A DNA stretch of 64,000 nucleotides, from positions 539,722-603,721 of the forward strand of contig JBBTTO010000002.1 of assembly GCA_038064195.1 (NCBI GenBank), read 5' to 3'. This document shows, piece after piece, positions 6,790-42,006 of this stretch. The notes under the pieces were generated by a model. That model was given only the letters and a program-made list of their open reading frames with translations. It did no database searches and was not told where the DNA came from. Source of the stretch: Patescibacteria group bacterium (GTDB lineage: Bacteria; Patescibacteriota; Microgenomatia; Levybacterales; UBA12049). Made by a program: the position numbers and the translations under genes. Positions within the stretch are counted from its first letter, which is position 1; each line of letters starts with the position of its first letter.

Positions 6790-7968
6790 ATGCTTATACG
6801 TCCTCAGACGTCAAATTTCGCCAAAATCCGTGTCATTGGAGTTGGTGGTGGAGGCGGAAATGCCGTCACTTCGATGATCACCCATAACAACATTCAAGGT
6901 GTTGATTTTGTCTCAATCAATACTGACGCCCAGGCTCTCCTTCGTAACCCCGCCATGACCAAGGTCCAAATCGGTGAAAACCTCACCAAAGGTTTGGGTT
7001 CAGGTGGAGATCCTGAGATAGGTCGTCAGGCTGCTGAGGAGTCGGCTGAGAAGATCAAAGATATGCTGGAGGGATCAGACATGGTCTTTTTGACAGCCGG
7101 GATGGGCGGAGGATCAGGTACAGGGGCCACATCTATTATTGCCAAAATTGCCAAAGAGGTAGGAGCTCTGACTGTCGCAGTTGTTACCAAGCCGTTCTCT
7201 TTTGAAGGCACTCGACGCATGGTCGCGGCTGAGGAGGGAATTGAAAGTCTTAAAGATAAAGTAGATACACTCATTGTTATCCCCAACCAGCGCATCATGG
7301 ATGTCGTTGACCGCAAGCTCTCACTTCTTGAGGCCTTCAAAGTTGCGGATTCTGTTCTCTCCCAGGGAGTCCAGGGTATCTCTGAAATCATTACGCTTCC
7401 CGGGTTAATCAATGTTGATTTTGCCGATATTCGGACCATTATGTCTAACGCCGGCTCGGCGCTCATGGGTATTGGGACGGGGATAGGCGAGAACAGGGCG
7501 CAAGCTGCCGCCAGAGCGGCCATTGCTTCACCTCTTTTGGAGGTAACGATGGATGGTGCTCGGGGAGTACTGTTCAATATAGTTGGCGGTAACGACCTGA
7601 CAATGACTGAGGTCGATGAAGCAGCCAAGATCATCTCAACCTCAGCCGACCCCGATGCCAACATTATTTTCGGCGCGACCATCGATGAATCGATGCATGA
7701 TCAGATCCGTATTACTGTAGTCGCAACTGGTTTTGATCAGACCAAGCAACGCCTGCAGCAGTTCGTCGCACCCCATTATGCGCCGCAAAAGCCTGTCAGT
7801 GAATACAACCCGCTTGTTGTGAACAGCGGCACGATGAGTAGTAACGGATCGGGTATTACCCGGGAGGAAGAGAGAATAGAGCCTGAGCCTCAGTCATCTG
7901 AGCCAGCACCCAAAGAATCAGATGAAGATAAATGGGACATCCCTGCATTCCTCAGGCAGAGAAATTGA
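6790..7968 (+). CDS. ftsZ: Cell-division GTPase FtsZ
   Basis: [10 protein letters not shown] tubulin signature and the conserved C-terminal tail ...[10 protein letters not shown]-stop. Confidence 0.95.
7939..7966 (+). repeat. Copy A of the 28-nt core ATCCCTGCATTCCTCAGGCAGAGAAATT. This is the genuine ftsZ 3' end, encoding IPAFLRQRN.
   Basis: Identical 28-mer recurs at 9715-9742. Diverged copies at 38118, 40030 and 41987. Confidence 0.9.
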
Positions 7969-8068
7969 CTTTCAGTTTTCATATTGCCTCCCTATTAACC
8001 CGCGGCTAAACGATTAGCAAGAGCATAAAACATATCGAATCATCTCATCCTTTTGATATACTGCAGTA

Positions 8069-8725
8069 GTGAATGAATATTTTAATACAGAAGTTGTAAC
8101 CTCCACCTTACGAAAGATGGTAGATGTTCTTGAAGAAAACAATATCGAATATCGTTTTTTAGGTTCTGTTGTTATTGCTGCTATTAATGGTCGTTTACAT
8201 CGAAATTTGGGGGATTTAGACTTCGTGATTGATTCTGAGGGGCGGGAGGTATTATATAAACACCTAAAACATTTCGGATTTAAACCCGCTCCTGGAATGT
8301 TTGCATTTGCTCGTAAATACCTGTGCTTAGAGCAGTTTACTCATGATGACTTTCTTGGGGTAGGGTACTTTTATGGGAAGTTTCAGCAAGATGGCTCATT
8401 CATTATGGGTAATAAGCAGTCGAATGTAAGAGTAGATGCTTTTGCACTAGAAAAGACGAAGTATACTCTTGGTGGGGTAAGTTTTATGGGTATTCCTCAA
8501 AGAGCAGCTGCTGCAGGTGTAAAAGAATCTGAATCAAACCCAAAGAGAAAATTTGAGAAGAAGATTCTAAAAGAGAAGGGCATAGAACCTTTCAAGAACA
8601 ATTACATTCACGTAACTATCTATGGAATAAATGCAGATTGGGTATACCATTTGTCTATGGCAATTCTTAATGTTATAGGAGCAGTAAGAGTAAAATTTGG
8701 TTTGGCATTTGACCCCTGGAGATAG
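8069..8725 (+). CDS. Pol-beta-fold nucleotidyltransferase, Lnu/ANT-like (lincosamide/aminoglycoside nucleotidyltransferase-like)
   Basis: GS-x14-DLDF with HRNLGDLDFVID, which resembles the LnuA-type ...GGWGVDVLTGKQQREHRDIDIDF core. The size (218 aa) fits that family. Confidence 0.45.
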   Translation: MNEYFNTEVVTSTLRKMVDVLEENNIEYRFLGSVVIAAINGRLHRNLGDLDFVIDSEGREVLYKHLKHFGFKPAPGMFAFARKYLCLEQFTHDDFLGVGYFYGKFQQDGSFIMGNKQSNVRVDAFALEKTKYTLGGVSFMGIPQRAAAAGVKESESNPKRKFEKKILKEKGIEPFKNNYIHVTIYGINADWVYHLSMAILNVIGAVRVKFGLAFDPWR

Positions 8726-8783
8726 ATGTAAATAACCTCACCTATGTCGCATTTTCCACTATTGTGCGACGTAATAATAAAAT

Positions 8784-8812
8784 TTGACAAATCAAGAATT
8801 TTAACGTATGCT
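8784..8812 (+). promoter_or_regulatory. Candidate promoter (TTGACA - 17 nt - TATGCT), preceded by the shared motif ATTGTGCGACGT at 8761-8772
   Basis: Hexamers read directly. The same 12-mer occurs at 38380-38391, upstream of another island promoter. Confidence 0.35.
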
Positions 8813-8839
8813 TACCTGAACATAAAGAAGAAAGCTTAG

Positions 8840-9589
8840 ATGAAAGATTACCCATTTAAAACACAAGAGGAAGCAATTAAATATATACAAAAACTATTCA
8901 GACGAATAGGCACTACTCCAGGAGAGAAAGTTTTTTACAAAGAAAGTGGCATGAAATTATACCCACTTCAAAAACTTGGCTTCTCCAATTATGGTCAATT
9001 AGTAAGGGAAGCAGAATTGCCTCCTAATAAGTTTGATAAAACTAAATATACCGAGGATTTTTTAATTAAAGAATTTATAAAAATGATTAGAAAGAATAAA
9101 AAATGGCCTACAAAAGCTGAATTGGATATTAAACACTTTAATGATCCAAATTTTCCTACCTCAGCAACATTCTATAAAAAATTTGGCTTAGTTAAGGGTA
9201 TGGCTGAAAATATCTTAGATTATACCTATGGGAAAAAAGGTTATAAAGACGTGAGAGACATATGCAATGAGATACTCATGAAATATGATAATTCAATGTC
9301 AAATGAAGAAGGAGATTCAAGAAGTGGTTATGTTTATATCCTTAAAAACGGAGGTCGACAAGAATATAAAATCGGGATTAGCGATAGTATACCCAAAAGA
9401 GGAATGCAATTGTCAACATTATCTCCTGAAAATTTAGAATTAATACATTCCATAAAGGCAACTAGTCCTAAAGCTGTTGAAAGATTTCTTCATGACAAAT
9501 TTAATAGCAAAAGAATACAAGGAGAATGGTTTAATCTATCAACGTCCGACATAAAATGGATTAAGAAATGGAACGGAAATGTTCTATAG
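8840..9589 (+). CDS. T5orf172 (GIY-YIG-superfamily) domain protein with two N-terminal homing-endonuclease-associated-type repeats
   Basis: C-terminal GYVYILKNGGRQEYKIGIS...R...L...W motif of the T5orf172/MUG113-like GIY-YIG family. Duplicated ...P..(F/Y)...F..YG repeat units in the N-terminal half. Confidence 0.5.
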   Translation: MKDYPFKTQEEAIKYIQKLFRRIGTTPGEKVFYKESGMKLYPLQKLGFSNYGQLVREAELPPNKFDKTKYTEDFLIKEFIKMIRKNKKWPTKAELDIKHFNDPNFPTSATFYKKFGLVKGMAENILDYTYGKKGYKDVRDICNEILMKYDNSMSNEEGDSRSGYVYILKNGGRQEYKIGISDSIPKRGMQLSTLSPENLELIHSIKATSPKAVERFLHDKFNSKRIQGEWFNLSTSDIKWIKKWNGNVL

Positions 9590-9714
9590 TCCCATACATA
9601 ATTGATCATTGACCTTTCAACTAAAACATCGTAATTTTCCTTAGGTTTTTTTAGTCCATTCGGCAGGCTCAGGATAAATAAGAATTGAAGCTAAAATGAC
9701 TGGATGTCTATAAA

Positions 9715-9742
9715 ATCCCTGCATTCCTCAGGCAGAGAAATT
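9715..9742 (+). repeat. Copy B of the 28-nt ftsZ-tail core (exact repeat of 7939-7966)
   Basis: 28/28 identity with copy A. The upstream context in-frame encodes [14 protein letters not shown]-stop. Confidence 0.9.
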
Positions 9743-10016
9743 AATCTAAAAAATTCCTTACGTAGTTTTTGCAAAGAATGCTATACATAAGCGCGTCTTC
9801 TGCTTTTTTATCAATATCAGAATTAGAAAGAACATTTGGAATGTTATCTAAAATTTTTGCGAAATAAGGTTTGACTTTAGATCTGTTTACCTCCGTAATC
9901 CTTTTCAAAGATTCTTCAGAAAAACGTTCTGCCATCTTTATTGATCTCCTGTGATACCCTATAGCAACACGCATAAGATCCATAGATAGTGATTCTATAG
10001 CTATTTTATTATTCAT
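9741..10016 (-). CDS. Hypothetical small protein (91 aa). Second gene of a two-gene minus-strand pair.
   Basis: ORF only. 4-nt overlap with the upstream 71-aa ORF suggests translational coupling. Its stop abuts repeat copy B. Confidence 0.35.
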   Translation of the reverse strand: MNNKIAIESLSMDLMRVAIGYHRRSIKMAERFSEESLKRITEVNRSKVKPYFAKILDNIPNVLSNSDIDKKAEDALMYSILCKNYVRNFLD

Positions 10017-10228
10017 AATATTTCCTGAAAGAAGAATCGGGTTAATGCATCATATCGTTTTCTAATTTCAGGATCAAGAATCTCATTTCCAGCGTTATTA
10101 TCTGTGGGTCTGATGTTAATAAAGGAATTGAAGTCAATATCTATTACTGTTTTGATGTACGAATCGAACTGTTCTTTTAGATTTTCAATTTCTTTTTTTG
10201 AATAAGGTTCAGCTTTAGTAATAATCAC
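10013..10228 (-). CDS. Hypothetical small protein (71 aa)
   Basis: ORF only, coupled to the 91-aa ORF. Divergent from the 10384 gene. Confidence 0.35.
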   Translation of the reverse strand: MIITKAEPYSKKEIENLKEQFDSYIKTVIDIDFNSFINIRPTDNNAGNEILDPEIRKRYDALTRFFFQEIL

Positions 10229-10337
10229 TCAGATAGTTTAGCATATTATCCTCGTAATTTTAAAAATGATTATGAGTAAAGTACTCTACCACAAATTCAA
10301 TCCTGCGCGACATGGATGAGCTAATAACGTTGAGTTA

Positions 10338-10366
10338 TTGAATTATTACCCCAGCCACTATATAAT
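10338..10366 (+). promoter_or_regulatory. Candidate promoter (TTGAAT - 17 nt - TATAAT)
   Basis: Consensus-like hexamers 18 nt before the ATG at 10384. Confidence 0.35.
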
Positions 10367-10383
10367 TGCCGAAAAGAACATAT

Positions 10384-11157
10384 ATGGAAAGATTTAGAAG
10401 GTTGGTCACAAGAAGAGTTCCTACAGTTGGAGAACCACCCTTAAGCATCGCAGAAGTACCTCCATCGGTTTCAGCTACTACAGCCGCACAATCGGAAACC
10501 AGAGCAAGTGAAGTTTTAGACCAAGAAAGGAAGCAATGGGAGGCTGCGTATATCGGTAGAGACTTCTTGGGTAAACGGGAATATCTGTTATCACTTGCTT
10601 TGCGGGATGACCCTTTAAAAAGAATTTACGCAGCTCTTGGAATTAATGATTTAGGGGCAGAGATTGACATTCCTCTTACTGACCTTACTCCCCAAGAAGA
10701 GTTAGCTCGGGATGCATACTTAAAAGCAACTTTTTTCGGTGAGGTTGATCCAGATAAATACCATGAATTTGCGACTGACTCATTTACAAAAGATCACTTA
10801 CTAGCGCTATTAAATAGAAATGCGGCAGGTGTCCAACCAGGCGATGTTACTGATTGGTTCCACACAACTTTTGGAGTAACCCATCTTGAACGATATGGAT
10901 CTGTTTATATTGGCTCGCATGGTGGATTAGGTGAATATGGGTATGACCACAATGCAACGATTAGCCCTTTAAAACGAGATCATGATTCTAGGCAGAGAGA
11001 TGAGACTGAGGAAATGTCGATGGGGAAAGCTATTGATTTTGCTCATGTTGTTCGTAAATCACTGCCGCATATAGATATGGTACCCTTAGCAATTCCTACC
11101 TACCTCCAAGACGCACAGGATGCTTTACAATTCCTTCCCCGAGATTGGGCAGCATAA
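10384..11157 (+). CDS. Hypothetical protein (the ORF track starts at a TTG at 10366 inside the -10; the ATG at 10384 is preferred)
   Basis: ORF with unusual composition (higher GC, Ala/Pro/Glu-rich N-terminus). No recognisable domain. Confidence 0.5.
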   Translation: MERFRRLVTRRVPTVGEPPLSIAEVPPSVSATTAAQSETRASEVLDQERKQWEAAYIGRDFLGKREYLLSLALRDDPLKRIYAALGINDLGAEIDIPLTDLTPQEELARDAYLKATFFGEVDPDKYHEFATDSFTKDHLLALLNRNAAGVQPGDVTDWFHTTFGVTHLERYGSVYIGSHGGLGEYGYDHNATISPLKRDHDSRQRDETEEMSMGKAIDFAHVVRKSLPHIDMVPLAIPTYLQDAQDALQFLPRDWAA

Positions 11158-11310
11158 GTTCTGATCTTAATACCTCTTGTCATCCTTTTTCAAAGAGCAC
11201 AAAACTTGTTGACTTTGCTTCTTGTTATTGTTACATTCAAGATGTCATAAGATGACAAAGAAATGCCATAAGAAATTTACGGTATTTCTTAAGGGCATGA
11301 AGCTAAAAAG

Positions 11311-11340
11311 CGGGCTCGCTAAGCAGGCGGCCCGTGTTTT
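11311..11340 (+). terminator. Weak rho-independent terminator candidate (CGGGC - 14-nt loop - GCCCG followed by TGTTTT)
   Basis: Hairpin plus T-run read from the sequence. Confidence 0.25.
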
Positions 11341-11365
11341 AAGACAAAGGAATTAAATCTTCTCC

Positions 11366-11394
11366 TTGTTCCCTCATTATCTTTTCAATATAAT
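11366..11394 (+). promoter_or_regulatory. Candidate promoter (TTGTTC - 17 nt - TATAAT). The ATG at 11402 is 7 nt after the -10, so the transcript would be leaderless.
   Basis: Hexamers read directly. Confidence 0.3.
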
Positions 11395-11401
11395 CCAACT
11401 C

Positions 11402-12334
11402 ATGCGTGAGAGAGATGGAAATGGTGTGTCCAGACGGGCAATTCTTGGCGCTGCTCTTGATAAAACAATTTCTCAAGACCCCCTTATCGGAAGAGCCGCG
11501 GATATACTTGCGCCTGAGACCAGACCTCAAGTTCAAAGACTCCGCGAGTTGCAAGAAGGTGTAGAGAATATCCCAACACAGATAATTGCTTCAGCTATAG
11601 GAGATGTTATTAAACTTTATCCGATAGTTTATCAAGTCGATAGTTTGGGGCCAGGTATGAACTATGTCATTGGCGCGGTTCTTCTTCCCTTAGGCTCTGT
11701 AGATGTAGAATTGCAAAATATTTATTGGCACGGAATAATTTACAGCGGTATTGAAAAATCTTCAGTCCATTTCAATCCAGATTCACAGAGTCTTGCAGAA
11801 GTACATATAAATTTTGATGGAAGTGGTGAGGATACAGGTATGTCAAATTATGGAGCAGCTGAGGATTTTAATCCTTTAATACAAATGAGCAGAGAAGAGT
11901 CTGATCTCTATGGTGAGGAGCTTGATAACCAAGGATTTCTGAACTTTGACCAGAGTATTATTTTAGAAGCTATTTATCAAGCAGTCGTCTATGGCGAGAG
12001 AAGTACCTATTGGCAAGATACTGTTGTGCCGATGCTCAGGATGGATGAATTAACCGCATTTAATAGGGCATGGCACGAGGGGTTATTGCGCTCGCGTAAT
12101 ATTGATCCCGAGTTATTTGAAGTTGTTAGTCGGCAGCTACCTATAAGAGAAAGTATGGAGCTTATTAAATCTGGAGGTAGAATAAAAAGATTGGATGCCA
12201 TGAGATATCTGGGTCGTGAAGCAACAAGGCGAGCTCGGGATTTGCTTGTGCCAAGGAATGAAGCTGGAGATTCACTGAGGCAGCTTAATGGTAGAATCAT
12301 TTTTAATGAAACTGATTTTGAAATTGATGAGTAG
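11402..12334 (+). CDS. Hypothetical protein (310 aa from the ATG at 11402)
   Basis: ORF with higher GC than surroundings. No recognisable domain. Confidence 0.5.
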   Translation: MRERDGNGVSRRAILGAALDKTISQDPLIGRAADILAPETRPQVQRLRELQEGVENIPTQIIASAIGDVIKLYPIVYQVDSLGPGMNYVIGAVLLPLGSVDVELQNIYWHGIIYSGIEKSSVHFNPDSQSLAEVHINFDGSGEDTGMSNYGAAEDFNPLIQMSREESDLYGEELDNQGFLNFDQSIILEAIYQAVVYGERSTYWQDTVVPMLRMDELTAFNRAWHEGLLRSRNIDPELFEVVSRQLPIRESMELIKSGGRIKRLDAMRYLGREATRRARDLLVPRNEAGDSLRQLNGRIIFNETDFEIDE

Positions 12335-12400
12335 TTTTTTTATATACTATCGCGTATTTCTACGGCAGAGGAACTAGCTTCAGATTAATCCCGGCAATTA

Positions 12401-13426
12401 CTATTTTGTAAATAGGAGCTGTAAGAATTCTTTATATCCTCTTTTAAATCTTCTTCGCGTCGCTACTTCAAGCATAAGTTCAATCATTGCTACAAATAAC
12501 AACCAGTAAACAAAAATAGCTATTTTCTGACTGATATATATATTACCAGATATATACGCTGCAAAGGACAAAAATATTAATACACCTGATACTAAAAAAG
12601 TTACCTCACTTCGTAAACGATAGATTAAAATACCCATCATCCAAATTATTCCAAATATACGGAAATCCTGCAGCACAAGCGAATTAAATTCAGGTGAAAA
12701 CGTCATAAAGATAATAAGAAGTGAAAGATAAAAATAATTTACTTTGGCACCGAGATTTTTATTAAACAGAGCGAAAAATACATAAAAAATGAAAGGAGTG
12801 AGATGAAGTAATTGTTGAGCTGAATCTGCTACATTTGAAGAGGGTTTTGTTGTTTTTCTTTCAATAAAATTAACTGTATCACCAATATTTAGTAGGGCAT
12901 ATTTTATGGAGTATTTGTATTTAGTGACAAAAATTTGTTCATGTGGAGAAACATAGATTGCATCATCCTTTTTACCCAGCGTTGATTCGATCTGAAAATC
13001 ATACGTTTTCCCTTTTGAGTTGACAATTACCGGAAAGCCGAAGGTAAAAAGTTGATTATCCTGGAATTGGTCAACTTTATAATTTGCTTGATAATACCAG
13101 TCTCTTTCACCTTTTTCTTTTATCTTAAAAATAAGGATGTCATTACCTGCTCGTTTATAAGTGCCAAACCTTATCGCGAGGATTCCCAAATTGTTTGAGT
13201 GTGCGACGAACTCTCCGGTTATTATTTCCCCTTTCATAAGAGGTGTTTTAATCGGAGCAATTATATCTTTTTGAGTTTTTGGGTAAGCAATTATTGAAAC
13301 TGGCTCGCTTGTATCGAAGTTACGAAAAAAATAAAGAAAAAAACCAAATAGGAGAAGAGCACAAGGAATAATGAGCCATTTTAAGAGCAGATAAAAGAAA
13401 TGATGTGTTTTCATAACAAGTAACAA
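12401..13426 (-). CDS. Hypothetical integral membrane protein
   Basis: Multiple hydrophobic segments. No motif recognised. Confidence 0.45.
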   Translation of the reverse strand: MLLVMKTHHFFYLLLKWLIIPCALLLFGFFLYFFRNFDTSEPVSIIAYPKTQKDIIAPIKTPLMKGEIITGEFVAHSNNLGILAIRFGTYKRAGNDILIFKIKEKGERDWYYQANYKVDQFQDNQLFTFGFPVIVNSKGKTYDFQIESTLGKKDDAIYVSPHEQIFVTKYKYSIKYALLNIGDTVNFIERKTTKPSSNVADSAQQLLHLTPFIFYVFFALFNKNLGAKVNYFYLSLLIIFMTFSPEFNSLVLQDFRIFGIIWMMGILIYRLRSEVTFLVSGVLIFLSFAAYISGNIYISQKIAIFVYWLLFVAMIELMLEVATRRRFKRGYKEFLQLLFTK

Positions 13427-20170: not shown

Positions 20171-20581
20171 ATGAGATTTTTTATTACATCAGAAAACCAT
20201 ACAACTATAGCAGATAAGGTGAGATCTGTTCGTAATTCGATTGGACAGAAAATTAGTAAAATGGCTGAAATGAAAGATTATGGACAAAGCGTTAGTTATT
20301 GGGGCCATATCTCAATTGTAAATCCTTCTAGTGTATATGATAAGGGTTTCTATCCTGAAGTTAAAAAATATTCTGGTAGTAAAAAAGAGGTCGAGCTTCG
20401 ATTGAAAATAGACTATGATGATGTCGTTAATGGTGACGAGAAAAAGTTATATACACTTTTTACGGATTCAATTCTTAGAGGAGTTCATATCGCAGAATCT
20501 GAATTAAAAATTGATGACTTTGATTTCAAAAGATTTAGAGCAGATTTAAATGAACTGTTTAGTAAGGAGGGATGGCTATGA
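20171..20581 (+). CDS. Putative cognate immunity protein of the RHS C-terminal toxin
   Basis: Small cytoplasmic ORF starting 3 nt after the toxin gene. It overlaps the next gene by 10 nt. Assigned by position only. Confidence 0.3.
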   Translation: MRFFITSENHTTIADKVRSVRNSIGQKISKMAEMKDYGQSVSYWGHISIVNPSSVYDKGFYPEVKKYSGSKKEVELRLKIDYDDVVNGDEKKLYTLFTDSILRGVHIAESELKIDDFDFKRFRADLNELFSKEGWL

Positions 20582-23500
20582 GAATATCTTTTGGGATCAT
20601 TAAAGTATTAGTTATAGTATTATTATTCGTAATTGCTAGTGTAACTACGACTTCAGCTGCGATGCAGGTGATTCCGCAAAATAATCCCCCGCAACAACCG
20701 AGGGATAAATTCCAGACAGATCTTTTTACCGGATCAGCTACCTATAGCTATCCTATTAACGTGCCAAAGGGCACCAATGATCTTACCCCCGAAGTTAGCT
20801 TTTCATACAACAATCAAGGCGCACACGACACAACAATGCAAAATGGTCTGGGGTGGCAGTTGGAGCGTGATTATATCCAAAGAGATGTTAATTACTCACC
20901 CTGGAATATTACAGATGACAAGTATAAACTGCATTTCAAAGGCCAGACCTATGATCTTGTCTATAACCCAACCGACAGTCTCTTCCATACAAAACAGGAG
21001 TCATTTCTTAAAATTCAACAATTCTTAACCGGCGGACAAGGGACAACCGGTATGTACTGGCAGGTGACTACTCCCGATGGAACGCTCTACCGTTTCGGTT
21101 ATACTACAAACTCAGCTCTTATTTGTGGCGGTCAGACATATGATGGATCCTGGAATGTGGATCAGGTAACTGATACGCATAACAATCATATCTATTTTAG
21201 CTATTTGCAGACTAATGGTGTTGCCTATCTCAGTCAGATCAAATACAACAACGATCAGCTTAGGGAAGTCAACTTTACCTACACTTCCAACTCTTACCAA
21301 AAGCCTGTCTCAGTCCAGGGATGTAGTATTAACGAGACATCAAAATTGTCTGCTATTTCAATCAAAGCAAGCGGAAGTGTCGTCAGAGGCTATGATCTTA
21401 CATATACAAATGCTTCAAATGGTCAGCCGTTGCTCTCCTCAATAACTGAAAAAGGTTCTGACAGCTCCTCTCCCCCCCCAACCACATTTACCTATAACCC
21501 TTCAAGCTCAGGGAATGGTTCAGGTATTGATTTCACAGGTGGAACAAATATAGATGCGGAGCTCAATCATTCAGATGTTGGTCTTTGTGATATGAACGGT
21601 GATGGGTACGTCGATCTTATAAAAACAACAGGAGGAGGGAATTTCAATTGGAATGTTAAACCAGGCAGTGGTACTGCTTTTGCAGCCACCTGGGTAACTA
21701 TGGCCTCAATTCCTGTTCAGTTAGGCGCTTCCAATATGAGACTTACTGATGTGACAGGGGACGGGAAATGTGATGTGGTTCAGACCGTCTATCGGGGAGG
21801 ACCAAATCCTAATTATGACTGGTTTGTCTGGACCAACACATCCGACAAACAGGCCGGGACACTTTCTTTTAGTGGTCAGACCAAATGGGAAGACAATATT
21901 AACTTTGATCAGGCAGCCGGCCTCACTGATACGAGCCTCACGCTTATCGATATGAATGGTGATGGGCTTTCTGATATTGTGCATGTCGGACAAAACAATG
22001 ACTGGGCAGTCTATCTTAACTTACCGGGACAAAATACCTGGAACAATGACAATACTAACTGGGCGCATGGGGTCTCATCTTTCAATAATCCGAGTACCAG
22101 ACTTGCTGATGTGAATGGTGATGGATTCCCTGATGTCATTATCTCAAGTAGTAACGGGGGGCCAAATGAAACCTATGAGGTTCTTCTTAATAGTGGTGGC
22201 TCACTCATGCCTTCTAAGAAATGGATTGATAATGCGAGTGTTGATGCCATTGATTTCAGTAATCACAACGTAGTTATTGCCGATGTCAATGGAGATGGAC
22301 TCCCTGATATTGTGCGGGGCAATGGCTTTAATTCAAGTAATACCAGTGCCCATTGGCAGGTATTACTTAATATGGGAGATCATTTTTCTACAACTATTAC
22401 TACCTGGTTTGATGCGACTATGAATGGGAGTAATGACTTTGACTTAGTTAAAGTTGTCGATCTCAATGGTGATGGTCTGACAGATGTTCTCAATCAGGCT
22501 TTTGGTTCATGGCAGGGTTATATTTCCCAGGGTTTTGCTCCTAATGCTCTTTATGAAATTACCACATCACAAGGGGGGTATATCGCCTTCGATTATACTC
22601 CGTCCACACGGTATTCTAATGGCAGTAATTTATCGTTCCCTCTTTGGCTGGTTAATAGGATGACTGTGCGGAATGGGCTTCCGGCACCGCACAGTACATC
22701 TGATGTTACAAACTATTTCTATGGAAATGGTAAATACAATGTCCAGCAGAGAGAGTTCCGAGGCTTTGGCAGCGTCAATGAAATATTAGCTAGTGGGACT
22801 AAGAGAGCATATAATTTTAATCAAGACGACGCACTGAAAGGAAGGCTTGCGTTGGAGGCTACCAGGGACACTAATGATAACCTCTACGCACGAACCGATT
22901 ATAGCTGGAGTAATTCACAAAGCAATAGTATTTATACTGTCTTGCTACAGTCTCAGCAAAAGTTTACCTATGATGGTGCGGGTGCAAATGCAAAGATCAT
23001 CCAGACTGATTATACGTATGATATCTTCGGGAATATTACCAAAACCTCAGAACTCGGTGATACGAGTTTAACAGGAGATGAGCGCTTCACTTACTCAGAG
23101 TATGCCTCAAATCCGACTCTTTGGCTGGTTAGCACTCCGAAACATACGTATAAAAGAGCAGCCGACGACACGACTAAACTCTCAGAGTCATGGTTTTACT
23201 ATGACGGTCATACAGGTCTTGATGACGCACCGACGAGAGGTGATGTCACGAAAGAAGTTAAATGGCTTAATACAGCCTCCGTAAATCCGACTATTCTTTC
23301 TGAGTATGATGCGTTTGGTAATCTTATTAAAGTAACTGATGCCAATAGTCACATTACGGGGTATCACTATGGTACGAGTGATACCACCTCAACATACCCT
23401 GACAATTCAACCAACGCCAAAAATCAAATAACTTCATACCTGTATGATCTCGGGACTGGCAACCTCCTTTCATCGTCTGATCCGAACGGATTTATCACTT

Positions 23501-26500: not shown

Positions 26501-26664
26501 TGAATGGGAGTCAGACAGTGACGATCCCATTGACGAGCTTTCACAAAGTAGGCAATGCGGGTATTACTCTTAATCCTGCGCTGTCAGTTTCCAACCTCCA
26601 TGCCAGGTTCTGGAGGAGCTCTTCATTTACTGTTGATATAACCAGCGTCAAGCTCCTCCCCTAA
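20572..26664 (+). CDS. Giant secreted SpvB/TcB-like YD(RHS)-repeat protein. It has FG-GAP-type beta-propeller repeats and C-terminal PT-linkers, a discoidin-like domain, a PA14 domain and two copies of a ~130-aa lectin-like domain. It has no RHS core or toxin tip.
   Basis: Signal peptide. SpvB N-terminal motif DLFTGSATYSYPINVPKG...LGWQL. Repeated D(V/M/L)NGDG(L/Y)(P/T)D units. Many YD repeats (YTYDIFGNITKT, YDSLGRRVTQ..., and others). PA14-like segment (GYTGQYYSN...NFSVRW...). Discoidin-like segment (ANDGNIGSYWEG). Two ~65%-identical C-terminal modules. Confidence 0.8.
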   Translation: MAMRISFGIIKVLVIVLLFVIASVTTTSAAMQVIPQNNPPQQPRDKFQTDLFTGSATYSYPINVPKGTNDLTPEVSFSYNNQGAHDTTMQNGLGWQLERDYIQRDVNYSPWNITDDKYKLHFKGQTYDLVYNPTDSLFHTKQESFLKIQQFLTGGQGTTGMYWQVTTPDGTLYRFGYTTNSALICGGQTYDGSWNVDQVTDTHNNHIYFSYLQTNGVAYLSQIKYNNDQLREVNFTYTSNSYQKPVSVQGCSINETSKLSAISIKASGSVVRGYDLTYTNASNGQPLLSSITEKGSDSSSPPPTTFTYNPSSSGNGSGIDFTGGTNIDAELNHSDVGLCDMNGDGYVDLIKTTGGGNFNWNVKPGSGTAFAATWVTMASIPVQLGASNMRLTDVTGDGKCDVVQTVYRGGPNPNYDWFVWTNTSDKQAGTLSFSGQTKWEDNINFDQAAGLTDTSLTLIDMNGDGLSDIVHVGQNNDWAVYLNLPGQNTWNNDNTNWAHGVSSFNNPSTRLADVNGDGFPDVIISSSNGGPNETYEVLLNSGGSLMPSKKWIDNASVDAIDFSNHNVVIADVNGDGLPDIVRGNGFNSSNTSAHWQVLLNMGDHFSTTITTWFDATMNGSNDFDLVKVVDLNGDGLTDVLNQAFGSWQGYISQGFAPNALYEITTSQGGYIAFDYTPSTRYSNGSNLSFPLWLVNRMTVRNGLPAPHSTSDVTNYFYGNGKYNVQQREFRGFGSVNEILASGTKRAYNFNQDDALKGRLALEATRDTNDNLYARTDYSWSNSQSNSIYTVLLQSQQKFTYDGAGANAKIIQTDYTYDIFGNITKTSELGDTSLTGDERFTYSEYASNPTLWLVSTPKHTYKRAADDTTKLSESWFYYDGHTGLDDAPTRGDVTKEVKWLNTASVNPTILSEYDAFGNLIKVTDANSHITGYHYGTSDTTSTYPDNSTNAKNQITSYLYDLGTGNLLSSSDPNGFITSYLYDTFGRLSKEIKPYDTASFPTTSYQYFTDGVAPEGILVAKRQTSGAAGTLDTYTWADGLGRVLQTRAPAENTSQQIVVDSFYGPSSKVIKQTVPYLTTLSAAYATPVSGVRATTTVYDPLDRPTLVTNPNGTTRTTAYDHWKVSTTDENSHVVNKIFNAFDKIIRIEEIVASLPQVTTYAYNGLDNLIAITDSAGNNFSLSYDSLGRRVTQVDPDLGTWRYEYDSVGNLTKRTDNRNIAIVKNYDELDRLTKVDYPTDTDITYTYDGNTRIGSLTSVIDTAGTINYTYDNRLRKLSEQRTIDGTSWTTQYAYDALDRIMSQTNPDGEVVGYTFNSQGEIDKVTGILNNIDYSALGKITKKDFANALSTVYSYNSDDFRLHNIKTGSLQDLTYTYDNVGNITSIANAVTSKTQNFGYDDLNRLLTASLTGGYNYAYSYNAIGNLLTFNNGSATINYTYGQNVGVHALTTSSETAVATPTPTPTSTQPTPTPTPLPGGGTELLGTIWTLSGNNSDAQNDKVITSNSLNGMTSAQVTFNLHGKTFGTGDDEASIIFIQNGVWLAANVTKFGAQNGLDGLQTVTIPLTSFHKVNDASVTLDPSQPVSNLHARFWNSFSFTVDITSVKVTAVTSTLQSQGKPIVASTQKTGYEATKANDGNIGSYWEGVDHAFPASLTVDLGAVYSVDKVVMKLNWGARTENVTILGSTDNTTFTTIVGATNYSIGNVPVTFTSRNIRYVRIMVNANSVTPAGQMAEFEVWGQGSGGPTPTPTVQPTPTPTATPTPTPTPASGYTGQYYSNKTLSGSPTLTRNDTAINFDWGSGRPDPLLPVDNFSVRWNRTINFTAGSYKFSMTGDDGVRLKIDGVTVIDKWIDQGPTTYTTTQQLTAGNHTIVMEYYESGGGAVAKLSYLEVQAPTPTPTPSGSGTEILGTIWTLIGNNGAAERDKTLAANTLNGKTSAQITFDLHGATFGGGDDEASIVFVQSGDWRAANVTKFGAQNGLNGSQTVTIPLTSFHKVGNAGITLNPALSVSNLHARFWRSSSFTVDITSVKLLP
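24999..25392 (+). repeat. Internal coding repeat unit 1 (~130-aa module GTELLGTIWTLSGNN...FTVDITSVKV)
   Basis: Paralogous to 26266-26661 at both DNA (~75%) and protein level. Confidence 0.7.
26266..26661 (+). repeat. Internal coding repeat unit 2 (GTEILGTIWTLIGNN...FTVDITSVKL)
   Basis: Paralogous to 24999-25392. Confidence 0.7.
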
Positions 26665-26695
26665 CTGCAATTTATTTTTATTTAGAGTTCCTCCC

Positions 26696-26743
26696 TTGAC
26701 AGTATGGTCTTTCGGGTGTTTAATATCCCTGTAGGGGGGATAT
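26696..26743 (+). promoter_or_regulatory. cop operon promoter (TTGACA - 17 nt - TTTAAT) overlapped by a CsoR-type operator palindrome ATATCCCTGTAGGGGGGATAT (26723-26743)
   Basis: Perfect 7-bp inverted arms ATATCCC/GGGATAT of the GC-rich type described for CsoR operators, over the -10 and immediately upstream of csoR. Confidence 0.55.
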
Positions 26744-26762
26744 TCTTGAGAAAAGGACACAT

Positions 26763-27038
26763 ATGTCATACCGACCGAAAAATACTGACGAACGCATCTT
26801 GCACCGCTTGAAAATTGCCCGGGGGCACTTGGAGAAGGTTATTTCTATGGTTGAGAACGATACATATTGTATTGACGTCATGCATCAAATGCAGGCTGTT
26901 GAGAAAGGACTTAATCAAACAGGAAATCTTATTCTTGAAAATCACTTAAAGACATGTGTCGCGGATGCTATCAGTAAGGGGCGAAAGGACGAAGCGATAA
27001 CTGAGATAATGAGCGTCTTTAAGCAAAAAAACAGCTAG
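26763..27038 (+). CDS. csoR: CsoR/RcnR-family copper-sensing transcriptional repressor
   Basis: About 90 aa. HRLKIARGHL...YCIDVMHQ...AV...C pattern with the Cys-His-Cys metal ligands. Confidence 0.75.
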   Translation: MSYRPKNTDERILHRLKIARGHLEKVISMVENDTYCIDVMHQMQAVEKGLNQTGNLILENHLKTCVADAISKGRKDEAITEIMSVFKQKNS

Positions 27039-29636: not shown

Positions 29637-29637
29637 T

Positions 29638-35935: not shown

Positions 35936-35938
35936 CTA

Positions 35939-35967
35939 TTGACATCTGTGAAAACAAGGTCTATGAT
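35939..35967 (+). promoter_or_regulatory. Candidate promoter (TTGACA - 17 nt - TATGAT) upstream of rpmA
   Basis: Consensus -35. AAGGAG ribosome-binding site before the ATG at 36018. Confidence 0.35.
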
Positions 35968-36017
35968 AATCTTGTTTTCACAACGTCAAACGTTGCCGAG
36001 GTAAAGGAGAATAAAAA

Positions 36018-37143: not shown

Positions 37144-37148
37144 CTAAG

Positions 37149-37718: not shown

Positions 37719-37752
37719 AATGATTGGTCTATTATTCAGGACTACGCACGAT

Positions 37753-37781
37753 TTGTCAACCGCAATTCAATTTGCTAAGAT
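37753..37781 (+). promoter_or_regulatory. Candidate promoter (TTGTCA - 17 nt - TAAGAT) for the tRNA transcript
   Basis: Hexamers read directly. Confidence 0.3.
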
Positions 37782-37850
37782 TCCTGTACGGTTGCATAGC
37801 TCAGCCCCGATTTAATCGGGGTCAGCAGGTTAGACCTGTCCGACATGTCT

Positions 37851-37924
37851 GGATCCTTAGCTCAGTTGGTTAGAGCGTTGCATTCACATTGCAAAGGTCG
37901 GAAGTTCGAGTCTTCTAGGATCCA
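37851..37924 (+). tRNA. tRNA-Val (anticodon CAC), CCA not encoded
   Basis: Folded by hand. 7-bp acceptor GGATCCT/AGGATCC. D-arm TAGCTCAGTTGGTTAGAGC. Anticodon stem TTGCA/TGCAA with loop TTCACAT. T-arm GGAAGTTCGAGTCTTCT. Discriminator A. Confidence 0.85.
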
Positions 37925-37944
37925 CATTCCGCGTTGGTTCCCTG

Positions 37945-37979
37945 CCCGCCATAGCTATCGCTAGGCGATTGCAGGCGGG
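37945..37979 (+). other. Branched GC-rich stem-loop immediately 3' of tRNA-Val (CCCGCC...GGCGGG with inner hairpin ATCGC-TAG-GCGAT). Possible processing or terminator structure.
   Basis: Inverted repeats read from the sequence. No adjacent U-run, so a terminator call is weak. Confidence 0.25.
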
Positions 37980-38117
37980 GAGTCCAGCTGCGACCACAGA
38001 TTATTTTCTCAGAAAATAGGTATTCCAATAGTAACATTCGGGTTAATGAAGGCTACTTATGCGCTTTCTTCTGGACTTTCTTGAATTTCCCGACGTTCAG
38101 GCATACGAGCTGATTAT

Positions 38118-38138
38118 ACATTCCTCAGGCATAAATGA
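38118..38138 (+). repeat. Copy E: degenerate ftsZ-tail core (ACATTCCTCAGGCATAAATGA), 200 nt after tRNA-Val
   Basis: 13/13 match to CATTCCTCAGGCA of the core. Flanks diverged. Confidence 0.5.
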
Positions 38139-38404
38139 AAATAGAGGGCTATTAATCCATAACTGGTTTGTGGATAGGTTAATAGACTTAAATAAATACC
38201 ATAAATATCTTGAATTCAAGTCCTTTTCATCACAATGAGATATGGTTCATAAGGTTGTGGTAGAGATGAGATCTTAGCCTTACTCTTTTCGAGGATTAGC
38301 CACAAATTGTGATAAAGTAGCCTCAAAAATTTCCGATCCACAACCCACAACTTGTGGTGTTTTAATACAGACAACAATCATTGTGCGACGTTAAAGCTTA
38401 CTTT

Positions 38405-38433
38405 TTGATAAACTTAAAGTTTTGATGTATAAT
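38405..38433 (+). promoter_or_regulatory. Candidate promoter (TTGATA - 17 nt - TATAAT). The ATG at 38440 lies 7 nt after the -10 (leaderless). Shared 12-mer ATTGTGCGACGT at 38380-38391.
   Basis: Hexamers read directly. The 12-mer is identical to 8761-8772. Confidence 0.4.
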
Positions 38434-38439
38434 TTCACT

Positions 38440-38856
38440 ATGAATCAATCTAAGGTGAACTTTATTCATTTATGTGATGCTGCAACTATTGACGGGTCAG
38501 GTAAATTAAATATGCTTGGAATATTTAGCATAATTTATCTACAAGAAATCCCTGGTAAGTTTCCAAAGTTCACTGCAGTTGTGAGTATCGGAATTGAGGG
38601 GAAAGAAGGCTCAAAAAATATTTTAGATATTAAAATTGTTGCGCCAGATAATAAAGATTTGACTGTTAACCCTCCCATAAAAACTGAATTTACTACACCT
38701 AAAATACCTTTTAAAAAAACACCAACGCTTAATTTAATTCTTGATATAGGCAATCTCGGATTTAACACTGGTGGGAAACACACCCTAAATGTTTTTTTAA
38801 ATGGGAAGAATATTGGTTCTAAAAGTTTCGATGTTGAAAAAAGAGAGGTTAAATAA
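38440..38856 (+). CDS. Hypothetical protein, gene 1 of a tightly coupled three-gene cassette (the ORF track starts at a TTG at 38422 inside the -10)
   Basis: ORF with no recognisable domain. 2-nt gap to the next gene. Confidence 0.5.
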   Translation: MNQSKVNFIHLCDAATIDGSGKLNMLGIFSIIYLQEIPGKFPKFTAVVSIGIEGKEGSKNILDIKIVAPDNKDLTVNPPIKTEFTTPKIPFKKTPTLNLILDIGNLGFNTGGKHTLNVFLNGKNIGSKSFDVEKREVK

Positions 38857-38858
38857 AT

Positions 38859-39359
38859 ATGTGGGTAACACCTATACCAGCAACTCAAACAGCCGTTAAT
38901 GATTTTTCAGAAAGAAACCAATTAACAAGTGGCTTCGTTAGCAATGCTTTGAAAGTGGAAAGCTTGAAACCATTGCAAAACCTAACATCGGTATACGTGT
39001 CTGGAGCAACAATTATTGAAGGCATCATAGCTTTCCGACCCCAGCCTATACAAAACATGCTCAGTTCTGGTGTGGTAACACTTGCGGGTAATTATCCTGA
39101 GGAACAGGGGTTGAAGGCATTAGATTTTGTCGATATGACAACTCAGACTATGTTAAATTATTTTGACCCAAGTATTCAAAGGGGTCTTCCTGCTCCTAGC
39201 GAAACTTTAGTAAAAGACGAACAAGATGAGCTTATAGATTATATGTTAAAAAATGAAAATGTAGAATTTCACCCTCATGCGAAAACCATGCAGATTACTG
39301 TAAAAATTGGCAAAGCAGAGCACATCGTCCCTCAAATATCTATAGATGATGACGAATAA
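38859..39359 (+). CDS. Hypothetical protein, gene 2 of the cassette
   Basis: ORF with no recognisable domain. Its stop overlaps the next start (ATAATG). Confidence 0.5.
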   Translation: MWVTPIPATQTAVNDFSERNQLTSGFVSNALKVESLKPLQNLTSVYVSGATIIEGIIAFRPQPIQNMLSSGVVTLAGNYPEEQGLKALDFVDMTTQTMLNYFDPSIQRGLPAPSETLVKDEQDELIDYMLKNENVEFHPHAKTMQITVKIGKAEHIVPQISIDDDE

Positions 39360-39910
39360 TGAGTCAAAGATTCAAATGGTATAAGCGAGTATCAAGTGCT
39401 TCAGATTTGGAGCAAGGGGATTTTATTTATGGGTGTCCAATTATTGTTCCCCCAGACGAATATCCTGAACGTTTAGAAAATGCAACCATAAATACCACAG
39501 TTAAATCAAATAACGTTATAATTCTGACTCAATCATGCGACTTAATTGGAACCAGAGATAAACCAGAAGTTATTTTGGTCTGTCCGTATTGGGAGTTTCA
39601 TGAAGTTAAAGAGTCAAATCCCACATTATTAAGTAAGAGCTTTATAGAATCTGTAAAAAAGGGCTATCGGCCACGCTTCCACATTCTTAATAAATGCGAT
39701 ATAAATGGACACAAAAAGGAATATATGCTAGTAGACTTTACATATGTCTACGCTATCCCTACAGTTTCGCTCCCTAAGATTTTAACTCGGAATAAGACTA
39801 GGTTAAGAATGCTTCCTCCATACAGAGAACAGTTTGCCCAATCTTTTGCACACTTTTATAGTAGAATAGGGTTGCCAGAAAATTTGCCTGCCGGAATCGG
39901 TAGCATATAA
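39359..39910 (+). CDS. Hypothetical protein, gene 3 of the cassette (four conserved-looking Cys, including a QSCDL motif)
   Basis: ORF with no recognisable domain. Confidence 0.5.
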   Translation: MSQRFKWYKRVSSASDLEQGDFIYGCPIIVPPDEYPERLENATINTTVKSNNVIILTQSCDLIGTRDKPEVILVCPYWEFHEVKESNPTLLSKSFIESVKKGYRPRFHILNKCDINGHKKEYMLVDFTYVYAIPTVSLPKILTRNKTRLRMLPPYREQFAQSFAHFYSRIGLPENLPAGIGSI

Positions 39911-40007
39911 ATCTGTTGGTTGACTTCTTAGAGCTTCTTTGTTAAATTCATCTTGTAGACTTAAAAAGCAAACTTTATTTTCAGGTGTTTTACTTGAATT
40001 TAGCTTC

Positions 40008-40059
40008 AAAAGTAGGGGATGACTCATGAATCCCCGCATTCCTCAGACAGCGTAATTAA
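40008..40059 (+). repeat. Copy C: AAAAGTAGGGGATGACTCATGA + ATCCCCGCATTCCTCAGACAGCGTAATTAA. The core still encodes IPAFLRQRN-stop via synonymous changes.
   Basis: 25/30 nt identity to the ftsZ end, with all differences synonymous in the FtsZ reading frame. The 5' flank is shared with copy D. Confidence 0.7.
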
Positions 40060-40125
40060 CTAGTTTTAGCTTCAACTTTCTAGTAAGCACCTTAGGGTGC
40101 TTTTTTAATTGTCATAGTTTCAGCA

Positions 40126-40798
40126 CTACCAATATACAATGTCGCCTTTAGCTGTGTATAAAACGATTTTAAAAAATCTACTTTGATCAACAATAACTTT
40201 TCTTATATATGAAGGTTTTATTGATATTTTCGAGATGGATTCATCGAGATTGAAAAGGTCTCTGTTGGCAAGAACGAACTTTCTCACTTTTGTCTCTTCA
40301 TTGTTAATAACACCATCTCTATGGACAAGAATGTTTCTGATCTCAATATAACGTTGAAGTGTAGTAAGAAGCTCATCTGAAAGTGAAGTTATATTTGGGT
40401 GATTGGATTTCTGTAGAAGCTCTCTAAACCATTTTTCGAAGAGGCTCATTTTATGTTCATGTTTAGGATTGTATGTTATTGAAGGGTTATTTTTCGAAAT
40501 TGTTCTGGAGATAAGATCAATATGCTTTTCAAATGCAGTGTTGAGTGTAATTCCCAAACCACTTAGCAAATTCCTTTCCAGCTCAGATATCATAAATGAG
40601 TCGTCTGAAAAGGAGTCGATTCGTGATTGGTAATACTCTTCGTTCTTAATTCGTTCATGCTCGTTTTCATTTATCCACTGTTGTGCAGAAACTTCGAGCT
40701 CGTCCTTTTTTTTTAGATATTAGTTCTTCAATTTCTCCAAGAACAAAAATACTTGTTTCAAAGTCAAAGTGAGGGTCAATAAATGATATTATTGGCAT
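40126..40798 (-). pseudogene. HEPN-like (R-x4-H) protein gene, apparently frameshifted at an A9 tract (plus-strand T9 at 40712-40720). The annotated 155-aa ORF (40126-40593) is the downstream frame. An ATG at 40798 opens the upstream frame 8 nt after the PIN gene stop.
   Basis: Frames traced by hand. MPIISFIDPHFDFETSIFVLGEIEELISKKK then shifts +1 into ...DELEVSAQQWINENEHE...MISELERNLL.... With 8 rather than 9 A the two frames fuse into a ~225-aa protein. EIRNILVHRDG matches the HEPN Rx4-6H motif. Confidence 0.45.
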
Positions 40799-40804
40799 TT
40801 TCTT

Positions 40805-41929
40805 CTAAAATATAGTGTAGATTTCCTCACAATTAGGACAAACTTCACCAAATTTTACTTCTCCAGAAGCACAATACCCGCAAGTTTTATCAATTTTTAT
40901 GTCAGGTTTATAGAATGAGCTATATTTTGCTAATAGTTCTTCGGGTATTATCTCCTGATATTTCTCAATAAGATGACTAAAGAATGTTTTGACGTCATCA
41001 TCTTCTATAATCAGCAGTATTTGGTCATTATCTAGGCCAGCTTGAAGCATCTTACATACTTCATTATCGGAAAAGTTAGTAAATAATGATAATCTTCTAA
41101 GAACAGCATGTGTTGTTGCGAATGATGGGCTTTCTACTAAGATTTGAACATAAGGCTCATGTTCTAATTCACTTGCGAGTTTTATATTTGGGAAGTGCTG
41201 ACTGAAAAATGCAGAGAGGGTAGTGTAAAAGAAGATTTGAGAGTTTTTTTCTTGATTCCATTCTTCTTGTAGGAAATCTGAAATTGCTTCAGCACTAATC
41301 TTAGAAATATAGTCTTTATCTTTTGCAATCAAATGTAATCCTTCCTCGTCTGGAACTGCGCTTAGAAGGCTTTCCCAATTTATTGAATCACCATAAGAGC
41401 CATCTTTGCCAGGTGGGTTTCCTATTTCATATCTACGTCTTGCTTGGTTTAGCAACTCAGAAGTAGTAGGGATAACCTTAGCAAGATTAAACAAGTTAAG
41501 AATTAGCTTGTCAGCATCTAAAGACTTATTTTCTATATCTACATGAACTTTTTGAAGGAGTTGATCTTTTGTCCGTATATAATCCCCAATGAGCGATTTT
41601 AGTTTGGAGTATTCTTGATAATCGTGGACGAACCTAGGAAATGAGTCAGGAATTGATTGAACACTCATTACTTTGAGAGAACTGGCAATCTTTGCCTCCC
41701 TATTTCTCCGATACTCGCCTATTGTTTGTTGAGGAACAAAAAGATTTATTTTCTTAGCTTTGATAGCTACCTCTAGTTTTCTAAGTTCTTCAATATCATC
41801 TTTAGAAAAATCATAGAATGTTAAATAAATATTTGTGTCGATAAACAAATTCATGAGCTCTATTATATCACTTGATTGACTTTCATTAGCTTTGCTGTTA
41901 AATTCTTTTCTAAGACATAAGAAAGTCAT
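40805..41929 (-). CDS. PIN-like nuclease domain protein with a C-terminal CxxC...CxxC zinc ribbon
   Basis: N-terminal LFIDTNIYL (PIN first-Asp motif), downstream acidic residues including GKDGSYGDSINW, and C-terminal CGYCASGEVKFGEVCPNCEE. Confidence 0.45.
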   Translation of the reverse strand: MTFLCLRKEFNSKANESQSSDIIELMNLFIDTNIYLTFYDFSKDDIEELRKLEVAIKAKKINLFVPQQTIGEYRRNREAKIASSLKVMSVQSIPDSFPRFVHDYQEYSKLKSLIGDYIRTKDQLLQKVHVDIENKSLDADKLILNLFNLAKVIPTTSELLNQARRRYEIGNPPGKDGSYGDSINWESLLSAVPDEEGLHLIAKDKDYISKISAEAISDFLQEEWNQEKNSQIFFYTTLSAFFSQHFPNIKLASELEHEPYVQILVESPSFATTHAVLRRLSLFTNFSDNEVCKMLQAGLDNDQILLIIEDDDVKTFFSHLIEKYQEIIPEELLAKYSSFYKPDIKIDKTCGYCASGEVKFGEVCPNCEEIYTIF

Positions 41930-41964
41930 TTCTTAATAGGTGTCTTTTAGGAGTTTTTAAGGCT

Positions 41965-42006
41965 AAAAGTAGGGGACAACTAATGAATTCCCGCATTTCT
42001 AAGACG
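41965..42006 (+). repeat. Copy D: AAAAGTAGGGGACAACTAATGA + ATTCCCGCATTTCTAAGACG. The core encodes IPAFLRR.. (synonymous changes plus loss of one codon).
   Basis: Aligns with copy C over ~45 nt. Overlaps the stop of the 41999-42745 gene. Confidence 0.6.

Follow-up and report, generated by a model that had tools for sequence, protein, structure and literature searches.

In the 64,000-nucleotide stretch of contig JBBTTO010000002.1 (assembly GCA_038064195.1) analysed here, hereafter the window, the cell division gene ftsZ is followed by accessory DNA in which short copies of the ftsZ 3' end recur. These tail copies, and the integrative elements that they probably delimit, are the subject of this study. 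The genomes closest to the window belong to Candidatus Levyibacteriota, within the candidate phyla radiation (CPR, Patescibacteria). The ftsZ gene (6790-7968, plus strand) is an open reading frame (ORF) of 392 aa with Tubulin and FtsZ_C domains and lies in a murG-ftsA-ftsZ cluster. An identical FtsZ protein is encoded on a 1,075,823-bp Hainich groundwater contig and in several further assemblies. The insert behind ftsZ is present in every assembly with the identical protein, at 99.6-100% identity.

Copies of the ftsZ tail in the window

The last 28 nt of ftsZ (7939-7966) are repeated perfectly at 9715-9742, where the number of matches expected in shuffled sequence is 0. We refer to the resident end, which reads IPAFLRQRN followed by TGA, as copy A (7939-7968, plus strand) and to the displaced tail, which ends in TAA, as copy B (9715-9744, plus strand). 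Copy C (40030-40059, plus strand) is changed at 4 of 27 coding positions and in its stop codon (TGA to TAA); the peptide IPAFLRQRN-stop is unchanged, and the initial annotation of this DNA was correct in calling all the differences synonymous. Copy D (41987-42005, plus strand) is clear over 19 nt (ATTCCCGCATTTCTAAGAC), reads IPAFLRR and is over this length identical to an inverted tail copy in the related locus L008; the sequence beyond may be its continuation after an insertion of about 11 nt. The left flanks of copies C and D have 64 nt in common, at 73% identity. A six-frame scan of the window returned IPAFLRQRN-stop three times (7939, 9715 and 40030) and IPAFLRR once (41987).

A nucleotide profile (nhmmer) made from 12 Levybacteria-type ftsZ tails and run on the window scored copies A, B and C at E<1e-7 and copy D at E=0.003. 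Two degraded copies are absent from the initial annotation. Copy F (plus strand, E=0.001), a tail with one base deleted, spans 12354-12376 in the profile match and 12349-12377 by eye. In copy G (11299-11356, plus strand), a degraded tail at 11331-11356 (CCCGTGTTTTAAGACAAAGGAATTAA) is preceded by the arm motif GAAGCTAAAA and a spacer. The tail of copy G alone is a weak profile match (11337-11356, E=0.26), but the copy is credible because GAAGCTAAAA and a GC-rich spacer also precede third tail copies in the relatives L011 (17146-17204) and L108 (14044-14094).

The initial annotation had listed five copies, A to E. The first four are upheld, whereas copy E, a 13-mer at 38119-38131 (plus strand), was rejected as a member of the family. 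Its profile E-value is 0.47 and it has no flanking arm homology. Smith-Waterman comparison with copy A and its arm, with the attL of L116 and with the L008 copy extends no further than the 13 nt, and at about 12 other positions in the window the alignment score is equal or higher, which makes copy E indistinguishable from chance. A further 13-mer, GCATTTCTAAGAC at 51674-51686 (minus strand), has an exact counterpart within copy D and within the L008 copy; with a profile E-value of 1.5 it is probably a chance match.

The ftsA-ftsZ region is syntenic with that of the closest species, L008. Synteny stops after ftsZ and is picked up again at 12403, which defines 7969-12400 as a variable segment with copy F at its right edge. 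The GC content is 0.48-0.51 in ftsZ versus 0.32-0.40 across this segment. The order after ftsZ is copy A, unit 1 (island 1), copy B, unit 2, copy G, unit 3 and copy F. Degradation of the core thus rises with distance from ftsZ, from the perfect pair A and B to the degraded G and F, as repeated insertion at an intact gene end predicts.

Integrase-bearing islands in related genomes

We fetched 80 species-representative ftsZ loci, and several of them have a second copy of their own FtsZ tail less than 10 kb away. Direct tail copies bracket islands of 3.7-9.8 kb in seven integrase-bearing relatives (L011, L106-L110 and L116). The proposal that the copies border integrated elements which target and restore the ftsZ end is supported. 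In L011, a Levybacteria bin with tails at 11060 and 17116, the first gene of the 6-kb island encodes a tyrosine recombinase (11247-12266; Pfam Phage_integrase PF00589, 3e-32), 160 nt past the ftsZ stop. The integrase also follows ftsZ in L106 (tails at 9810 and 18608), L107 (9707 and 13420, an island of 3.7 kb) and L108 (4194 and 14014). In L109 (11209 and 5611), whose island includes a small-terminase gene, the integrase is convergent with ftsZ, and in L110 (17081 and 9684) and L116 (11102 and 16789) it lies at the distal end of the island.

Integrases also lie 190-230 nt beyond the ftsZ stop in the Roizmanbacteria-type loci L020, L097, L099 and L102; the one just past ftsZ in L020 is 42% identical to that of L011. 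L097, L099 and L102 came from a metagenome scan with the L011 and L020 integrases, as did L100, which has a tail copy and an integrase without ftsZ upstream, an arrangement that would be attP-like or tandem. A protein search gave about 95 clusters of the integrase family, and the genomic context of seven clusters was looked up. The ftsZ 3' end is the location of 11 of the 12 contexts examined for the family. A scan of viral contigs with the integrase alignment gave no match. The 38.8-kb SRR26786855 contig L111 is phage-like; its integrase is only 32% identical, and no tail was detected on it. It carries genes for Phage_rep_O, NinG, CHAP, an M23 peptidase and an SU10-type adaptor, and could represent a temperate phage of CPR bacteria that uses another target.

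The island enzymes are Xer-like tyrosine recombinases with a complete R-K-H-R-H-Y set: R151, K176, H240, R243, H266 and Y276 (P0002 numbering) are kept in 88-92 of the 92 family sequences. The family scores 97-151 bits, against equivalog cut-offs of 220-335 for XerA, XerC and XerD. We considered the host Xer recombinase lying next to ftsZ as an explanation and rejected it: the enzymes fall below the XerC, XerD and XerA cut-offs, occur in a minority of genomes and lie inside islands bounded by direct repeats. Only 2 of the 80 species-representative ftsZ loci have the integrase. L017, L018 and L025 lack it; their FtsZ proteins share about 90% identity with the one of L020. Its rarity, together with its absence from such close relatives, indicates that the elements are accessory.

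The initial annotation had noted that the window holds no integrase, and this holds true: Pfam found neither an integrase nor a fragment of one, and the best match of the family hidden Markov model on six frames had E=0.14. The units in the window are therefore derivatives rather than complete members of the tyrosine-integrase islands. The window's own contig is 1.07 Mb long, and no contig with one of the 104 integrase-family clusters reaches this length.

Arms shared between the window and the islands

The sequences beside the window copies, roughly 50-130 nt in each case, were compared with those of the islands. On the left side of the distal core, the P arm extends over about 110-130 nt. 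It is conserved in L011, L106, L107, L108, L109 and L009, and alignments show that copies B, C and D of the window also carry it. By blastn, the P arm and core of copy C (39919-40059) match L011 17003-17144 (E=4e-14), the arm region of copy C matches L108 13936-14043 (E=1e-14), and the arm of copy B (9683-9746) matches L106 18576-18639 (E=7e-5). The earlier proposal of copy B as an element-side junction is supported.

Two types of P' arm occur on the other side of the core. Core C with its right arm (40030-40109) is homologous to the ftsZ tail and post-stop sequence of L011 (11060-11139, blastn E=3e-9), and this type-1 P' arm also follows the ftsZ stop in L106 and L108. To the right of copy A, the TGA and the type-2 P' arm that forms the left arm of island 1 (7969-8040, plus strand) are homologous to the post-stop sequence at the left end of the L116 island and to the flank of the inverted copy in L008. 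These arm homologies make copy A an attL-type core and copies B and D attR-type cores, while copy C, which has both arms, would be the attP-like junction between two tandem units. The units of the window are accordingly flanked by attachment sites of the autonomous family, and they contain no recombination or transfer genes.

Each P arm has a promoter-like element of the form TTGAC[CT]-17 nt-TA[AT]ATT that faces the core, at 9609-9637, 39920-39948 and 41876-41904. The element might restore transcription of downstream host genes, or might drive the integrase in the circular form.

Tail copies in inverted orientation lie 1.5-1.7 kb past ftsZ in L008 (12845-12874, minus strand) and L009 (12559-12588, minus strand). 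The L009 copy has a complete inverted P arm, and the L008 copy has the arm found after the ftsZ stop in the window. For the L008 copy, an inversion mediated by the integrase would fit.

Silent differences between copies and the site of crossover

Nine of nine copy pairs, from nine genomes, differ at 3-10 nt each, and every difference is synonymous. Against a nucleotide-level null the synonymous-only pattern has P=0.0017 for A versus C; for eight further pairs from other genomes, P ranges from 0.011 down to 0/200,000 simulations of random substitution. The K/R state of the penultimate residue agrees between the copies within every genome. Silent-only differences and a matching K/R state would both be expected if every copy is, or recently was, a translated ftsZ end, and they support the earlier view that the copies descend from real ftsZ 3' ends. 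Each copy would be either a displaced host end or an element-borne end that becomes the gene end after integration.

The block CCNGC (core positions 4-8) is the only one identical in all eight attL/attR pairs, which suggests that crossover takes place within the codons for Pro and Ala. In that case the element would have supplied all that follows in the resident ftsZ, from the remaining codons through the stop to the arm downstream. The window and L116 fit this position, as they share TGA and the same arm at attL and both have TAA at attR. Opposed to it, window copy C and L108B share the P arm plus a rare CGY arginine codon.

A search for empty sites by synteny of the right flanks was informative only for a copper operon, the flanks being otherwise too divergent to compare. 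This operon directly follows ftsZ in L010, which comes nearest to an empty site; L116 has it just past the island, and in the window a distance of 18.7 kb separates it from ftsZ. Right after the ftsZ stop of L010 (4498-4580), we observed a promoter and an operator-like palindrome (TTGACA ... TATCCC-N4-GGGGGATAT) of this copper-ATPase operon. A homologous copper-operon promoter is present in the window at about 26,700 (26690-26770), and a 2030-aa ORF (20572-26664, plus strand) lies between ftsZ and the copper operon.

Units and cargo behind ftsZ

The cargo of island 1 (8069-9589, plus strand; GC content 0.32-0.36) comprises a 218-aa nucleotidyltransferase-like ORF (8069-8725) and a 249-aa T5orf172/MUG113 protein (8840-9589), both assigned by Pfam; PADLOC gave a weak PDC-S57 match. 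Its right arm is a P arm (9609-9714, plus strand) with the promoter-like element TTGACC-17-TAATTT facing the core and with homology to the arms of L106, L107 and L009. The left arm of island 1 is thus of type 2, as in L116 with its distal integrase, and the right arm is of type 1, as in L106 and L107, in which the integrase is proximal. One deletion spanning the junction between two tandem elements would account for this structure and for the loss of both integrases.

The second remnant (9745-11298) contains a DUF5674 gene (9741-10228, minus strand), broken into pieces of 91 aa and 71 aa, and a 263-aa ORF (10366-11157, plus strand). The third remnant is a 322-aa ORF (11366-12334, plus strand) of unknown function with no family match. 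Comparison of the cassette proteins with all the other ftsZ loci gave no homologues, and for the genes of the second remnant none was found in any other ftsZ locus examined. Homologues of the 218-aa cargo protein occur on four other contigs, away from ftsZ and with no tails there. Cargo annotation in the window is thin; the sole hints are weak matches of the T5orf172 and PIN_12 proteins to candidate defence families.

A second cluster beside tRNA-Val

The second group of copies lies beside tRNA-Val(CAC) (37851-37925, plus strand), which is syntenic in L013. The tRNA was considered as the attachment site and rejected, its 3' end being repeated nowhere in the window. To the left of copy C are genes for a DUF6941 protein, a 166-aa ORF and a 183-aa ORF (38422-39910, plus strand), followed by the P arm of copy C (39919-40029, plus strand) with the promoter-like element TTGACT-17-TAAATT. 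To the right, the type-1 P' arm (40060-40110, plus strand) holds an intrinsic terminator, AAGCACCTTAGGGTGCTT followed by a T run, which the terminator scan reports as AAGCACC..GGTGCTT plus T run. The cargo between copies C and D (40126-41929, minus strand) comprises an ORF (40126-40790) that is broken at a T run in 40707-40716, together with a PIN_12 protein of 374 aa (40805-41929). The P arm of copy D (41876-41986, plus strand) has the same promoter-like element as that of copy C, and glycosylation genes come after copy D.

The initial annotation had read E, C and D as a tandem array. The tandem arrangement stands, but E as its left border does not, and the rejection of copy E leaves the cluster without a recognisable left border. 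The C/D position may have arisen by integration at a secondary site, by relocation of an array or by carriage within another island. For the window's species, the independent assemblies L091-L096 stop within tRNA-Val or close to it. Assemblies of the L116 species break at the ftsZ tail, L117 45 nt past ftsZ and L118 inside the tail. These breaks are consistent with repeats or strain heterogeneity at both places.

Tail hairpins in another CPR class

In Paceibacterota of the Kaiserbacteria type, the last ~30 coding nt of ftsZ (VPAFLRRSKLK-stop) are directly followed by their own reverse complement. Loci with such a tail hairpin are L075 (5333-5410) and L081, L057, L080, L037, L042 and L087, in which it lies at the ftsZ stop (~11200 in 21-kb loci). 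Between 23 and 29 nt of the tail are paired, and silent tail variants are matched by changes in the partner strand. The hairpin could be a terminator made of coding sequence or a palindromic attachment site. In L075, three tail copies (5333, 5501 and 5643) are packed into 310 nt without intervening cargo. The outer two are identical; the one in the middle deviates at 10 silent positions and is matched by a hairpin partner of its own. The triple tail looks like the scar of a lost element.

Discussion

We believe, with a probability of roughly 0.8, that the repeat is the core attachment site of integrative elements which, in Levybacteria and related Microgenomates of the CPR, enter ftsZ within its final ten codons. 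An incoming circular element would carry its own copy of the ftsZ tail within attP, and its integrase would recombine attP with the resident tail as attB. The attL so formed would regenerate the intact FtsZ C-terminal peptide, the stop codon and, with one arm type, a terminator, and attR would keep the displaced tail. The next element would again enter the intact ftsZ end, so that older elements would shift downstream and decay. In the window, this would have left three integrase-less remnants after ftsZ, bounded by the identical copies A and B and then by G and F. Unit 1 would be the youngest because A and B match perfectly, and the units bounded by the degraded G and F would be older. Two further remnants beside tRNA-Val would be bounded by C, as the junction of two tandem elements, and by D. 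Such remnants could not mobilise themselves and would at most be moved by the integrase of a newly arrived element. As all copies would trace to translated ftsZ ends, their differences would be only synonymous, as found.

Several points weigh against this reading. A distance of 30 kb separates the tRNA-Val cluster from ftsZ, and no core can be recognised on the left of this cluster. Two Roizmanbacteria-type elements have no second tail within 6.5-11 kb, and the inverted copies in L008 and L009 are not accounted for by plain integration. The mapping of the crossover from identity blocks in attL/attR pairs is ambiguous. Neither an empty site nor an excision product was seen for the window's own islands, and all conspecific contigs carry island 1; L003 and L004 differ from the window by single-base gaps only, and these assemblies, at ~4x coverage, hold no population information. 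Finally, all five remnants are without an integrase, yet several of them have well-preserved arms, a combination that simple decay would not predict.

Alternatively, the integrase-less units might be functional non-autonomous cassettes that a Xer-like recombinase acting in trans excises, reinserts and shuffles, including to secondary sites such as that beside tRNA-Val. In this they would resemble cis-mobilisable elements or the dif modules that depend on Xer. We regard this as improbable. It would account for the perfect 28-nt repeats A and B, for the two intact arms of copy C, for the lack of even an integrase fragment in five of five units and for their small size (1-2 kb); the cluster distant from ftsZ requires some route of relocation, and the integrases are simple Xer-like enzymes. 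However, no cognate integrase was found on the contig of this genome among the integrase-family clusters, genes are broken in three units (among them DUF5674 at 9741-10228 and the ORF at 40126-40790), and the cores G, F and D are degraded. The sampled population also showed no polymorphism, and a related cassette at another ftsZ site was not found. Slightly less probable again is the stronger form of this idea, a living pool of miniature cassettes shuffled in trans by incoming Xer-like integrases between the ftsZ end and secondary sites. If true, streamlined CPR genomes would hold an integron-like array of accessory genes on an essential division gene.

A further reading, far less likely, takes the copies not as recombination sites but as duplicates of the ftsZ 3' end that arose locally, or as a motif with a function of its own. 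Such a motif might be a terminator, a small RNA or a mini-peptide resembling the tail that binds FtsA. The conserved peptide, the promoter-like elements in the P arms and the long covarying hairpin around the ftsZ tail in another CPR class speak for a motif. Stop codons directly upstream of copies B, C and D nevertheless mean that no ORF ends in the tail peptide, and nine sequences of P arm plus core have no consensus structure, the sole Rfam match in the window being the tRNA. The copies moreover lie exactly at the borders of low-GC accessory DNA and bear the arms of integrase islands.

The initial annotation had held the machinery to be unknown or non-canonical, with the T5orf172/GIY-YIG protein as a candidate recombinase; a new homing system of this kind into the ftsZ tail is scarcely credible, as only the absence of an integrase from the window and a nuclease-superfamily domain in one cassette speak for it, while the same arms and cores belong to islands with a conventional Xer-like tyrosine integrase adjoining ftsZ, the T5orf172 protein is in only one of the five units and nothing implicates it, and its family is common phage and defence cargo.

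Under the favoured reading, in which a tyrosine integrase inserts an island at the 3' end of a conserved gene, the mechanism appears classical. Both e14 and phage 21 integrate at icd. Islands that enter a tRNA or protein gene at its 3' end, and restore the gene in doing so, are defined in the Islander database (PMC4383910), and SGI1 inserts at trmE (PMC8409611). Like these, the ftsZ elements carry the 3' end of the target and regenerate the gene, and the fragment that they displace forms a direct repeat at the far border; the integrase is found next to one end, the cargo is variable and often defence-like, and most differences between the copy on the element and that of the host are silent. 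Unlike the reported islands, they target the FtsA-binding C-terminal peptide of the essential ftsZ, their hosts are CPR bacteria, and the units in the window have no integrase. In full-text literature searches, neither ftsZ as an integration target nor an integrase family that uses it turned up. The claim of a previously undescribed kind of element was overstated: the kind is classical, and only the target gene appears new.

Tandem accretion is known from the ICESt1/ICESt3 family of Streptococcus thermophilus, which together with cis-mobilisable elements (CIMEs) occupies the fda 3' end. As there, several tandem units are flanked by attachment sites, and the inner units have no recombination genes but attachment sites akin to those of autonomous elements. 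The tandem integrase-less units of the window would correspond to such accretion products and CIMEs. They differ in that they are without conjugation or mobilisation genes and in that the second cluster lies off the primary site.

Xer-dependent elements include IMEX at dif and the pdif modules on Acinetobacter plasmids. The window resembles these in its short integrase-less units, in sites of 28-30 bp for a recombinase and in the Xer-like recombinase family. It differs in that the site is the ftsZ coding end and not dif, in that the autonomous relatives encode their own recombinase and, from pdif, in that the sites are mostly direct repeats rather than alternating inverted ones. Small accessory units separated by one recombination site beside a fixed chromosomal anchor also recall integron arrays. 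An integron was rejected, as there is no intI beside attI, the sites have no attC-type fold and the genes lie on both strands; unlike integron cassettes, the units also bring their own promoter-like and terminator elements.

For the window, a puzzling repeat becomes ordinary and explicable. More broadly, Levybacteria and related CPR bacteria would have, in the ftsZ 3' end, a dedicated integration hotspot with its own integrase family. The presence of a second FtsZ tail would then be a simple sequence marker for mobile islands and their borders in CPR bins, where mobile elements are poorly charted. The silent-site variant that an element carries would allow safe targeting of an essential and highly constrained peptide-coding segment. 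As the stop, the terminator and possibly the last ftsZ codons would be supplied by the element, such elements could alter the FtsA-binding tail of FtsZ or its expression.

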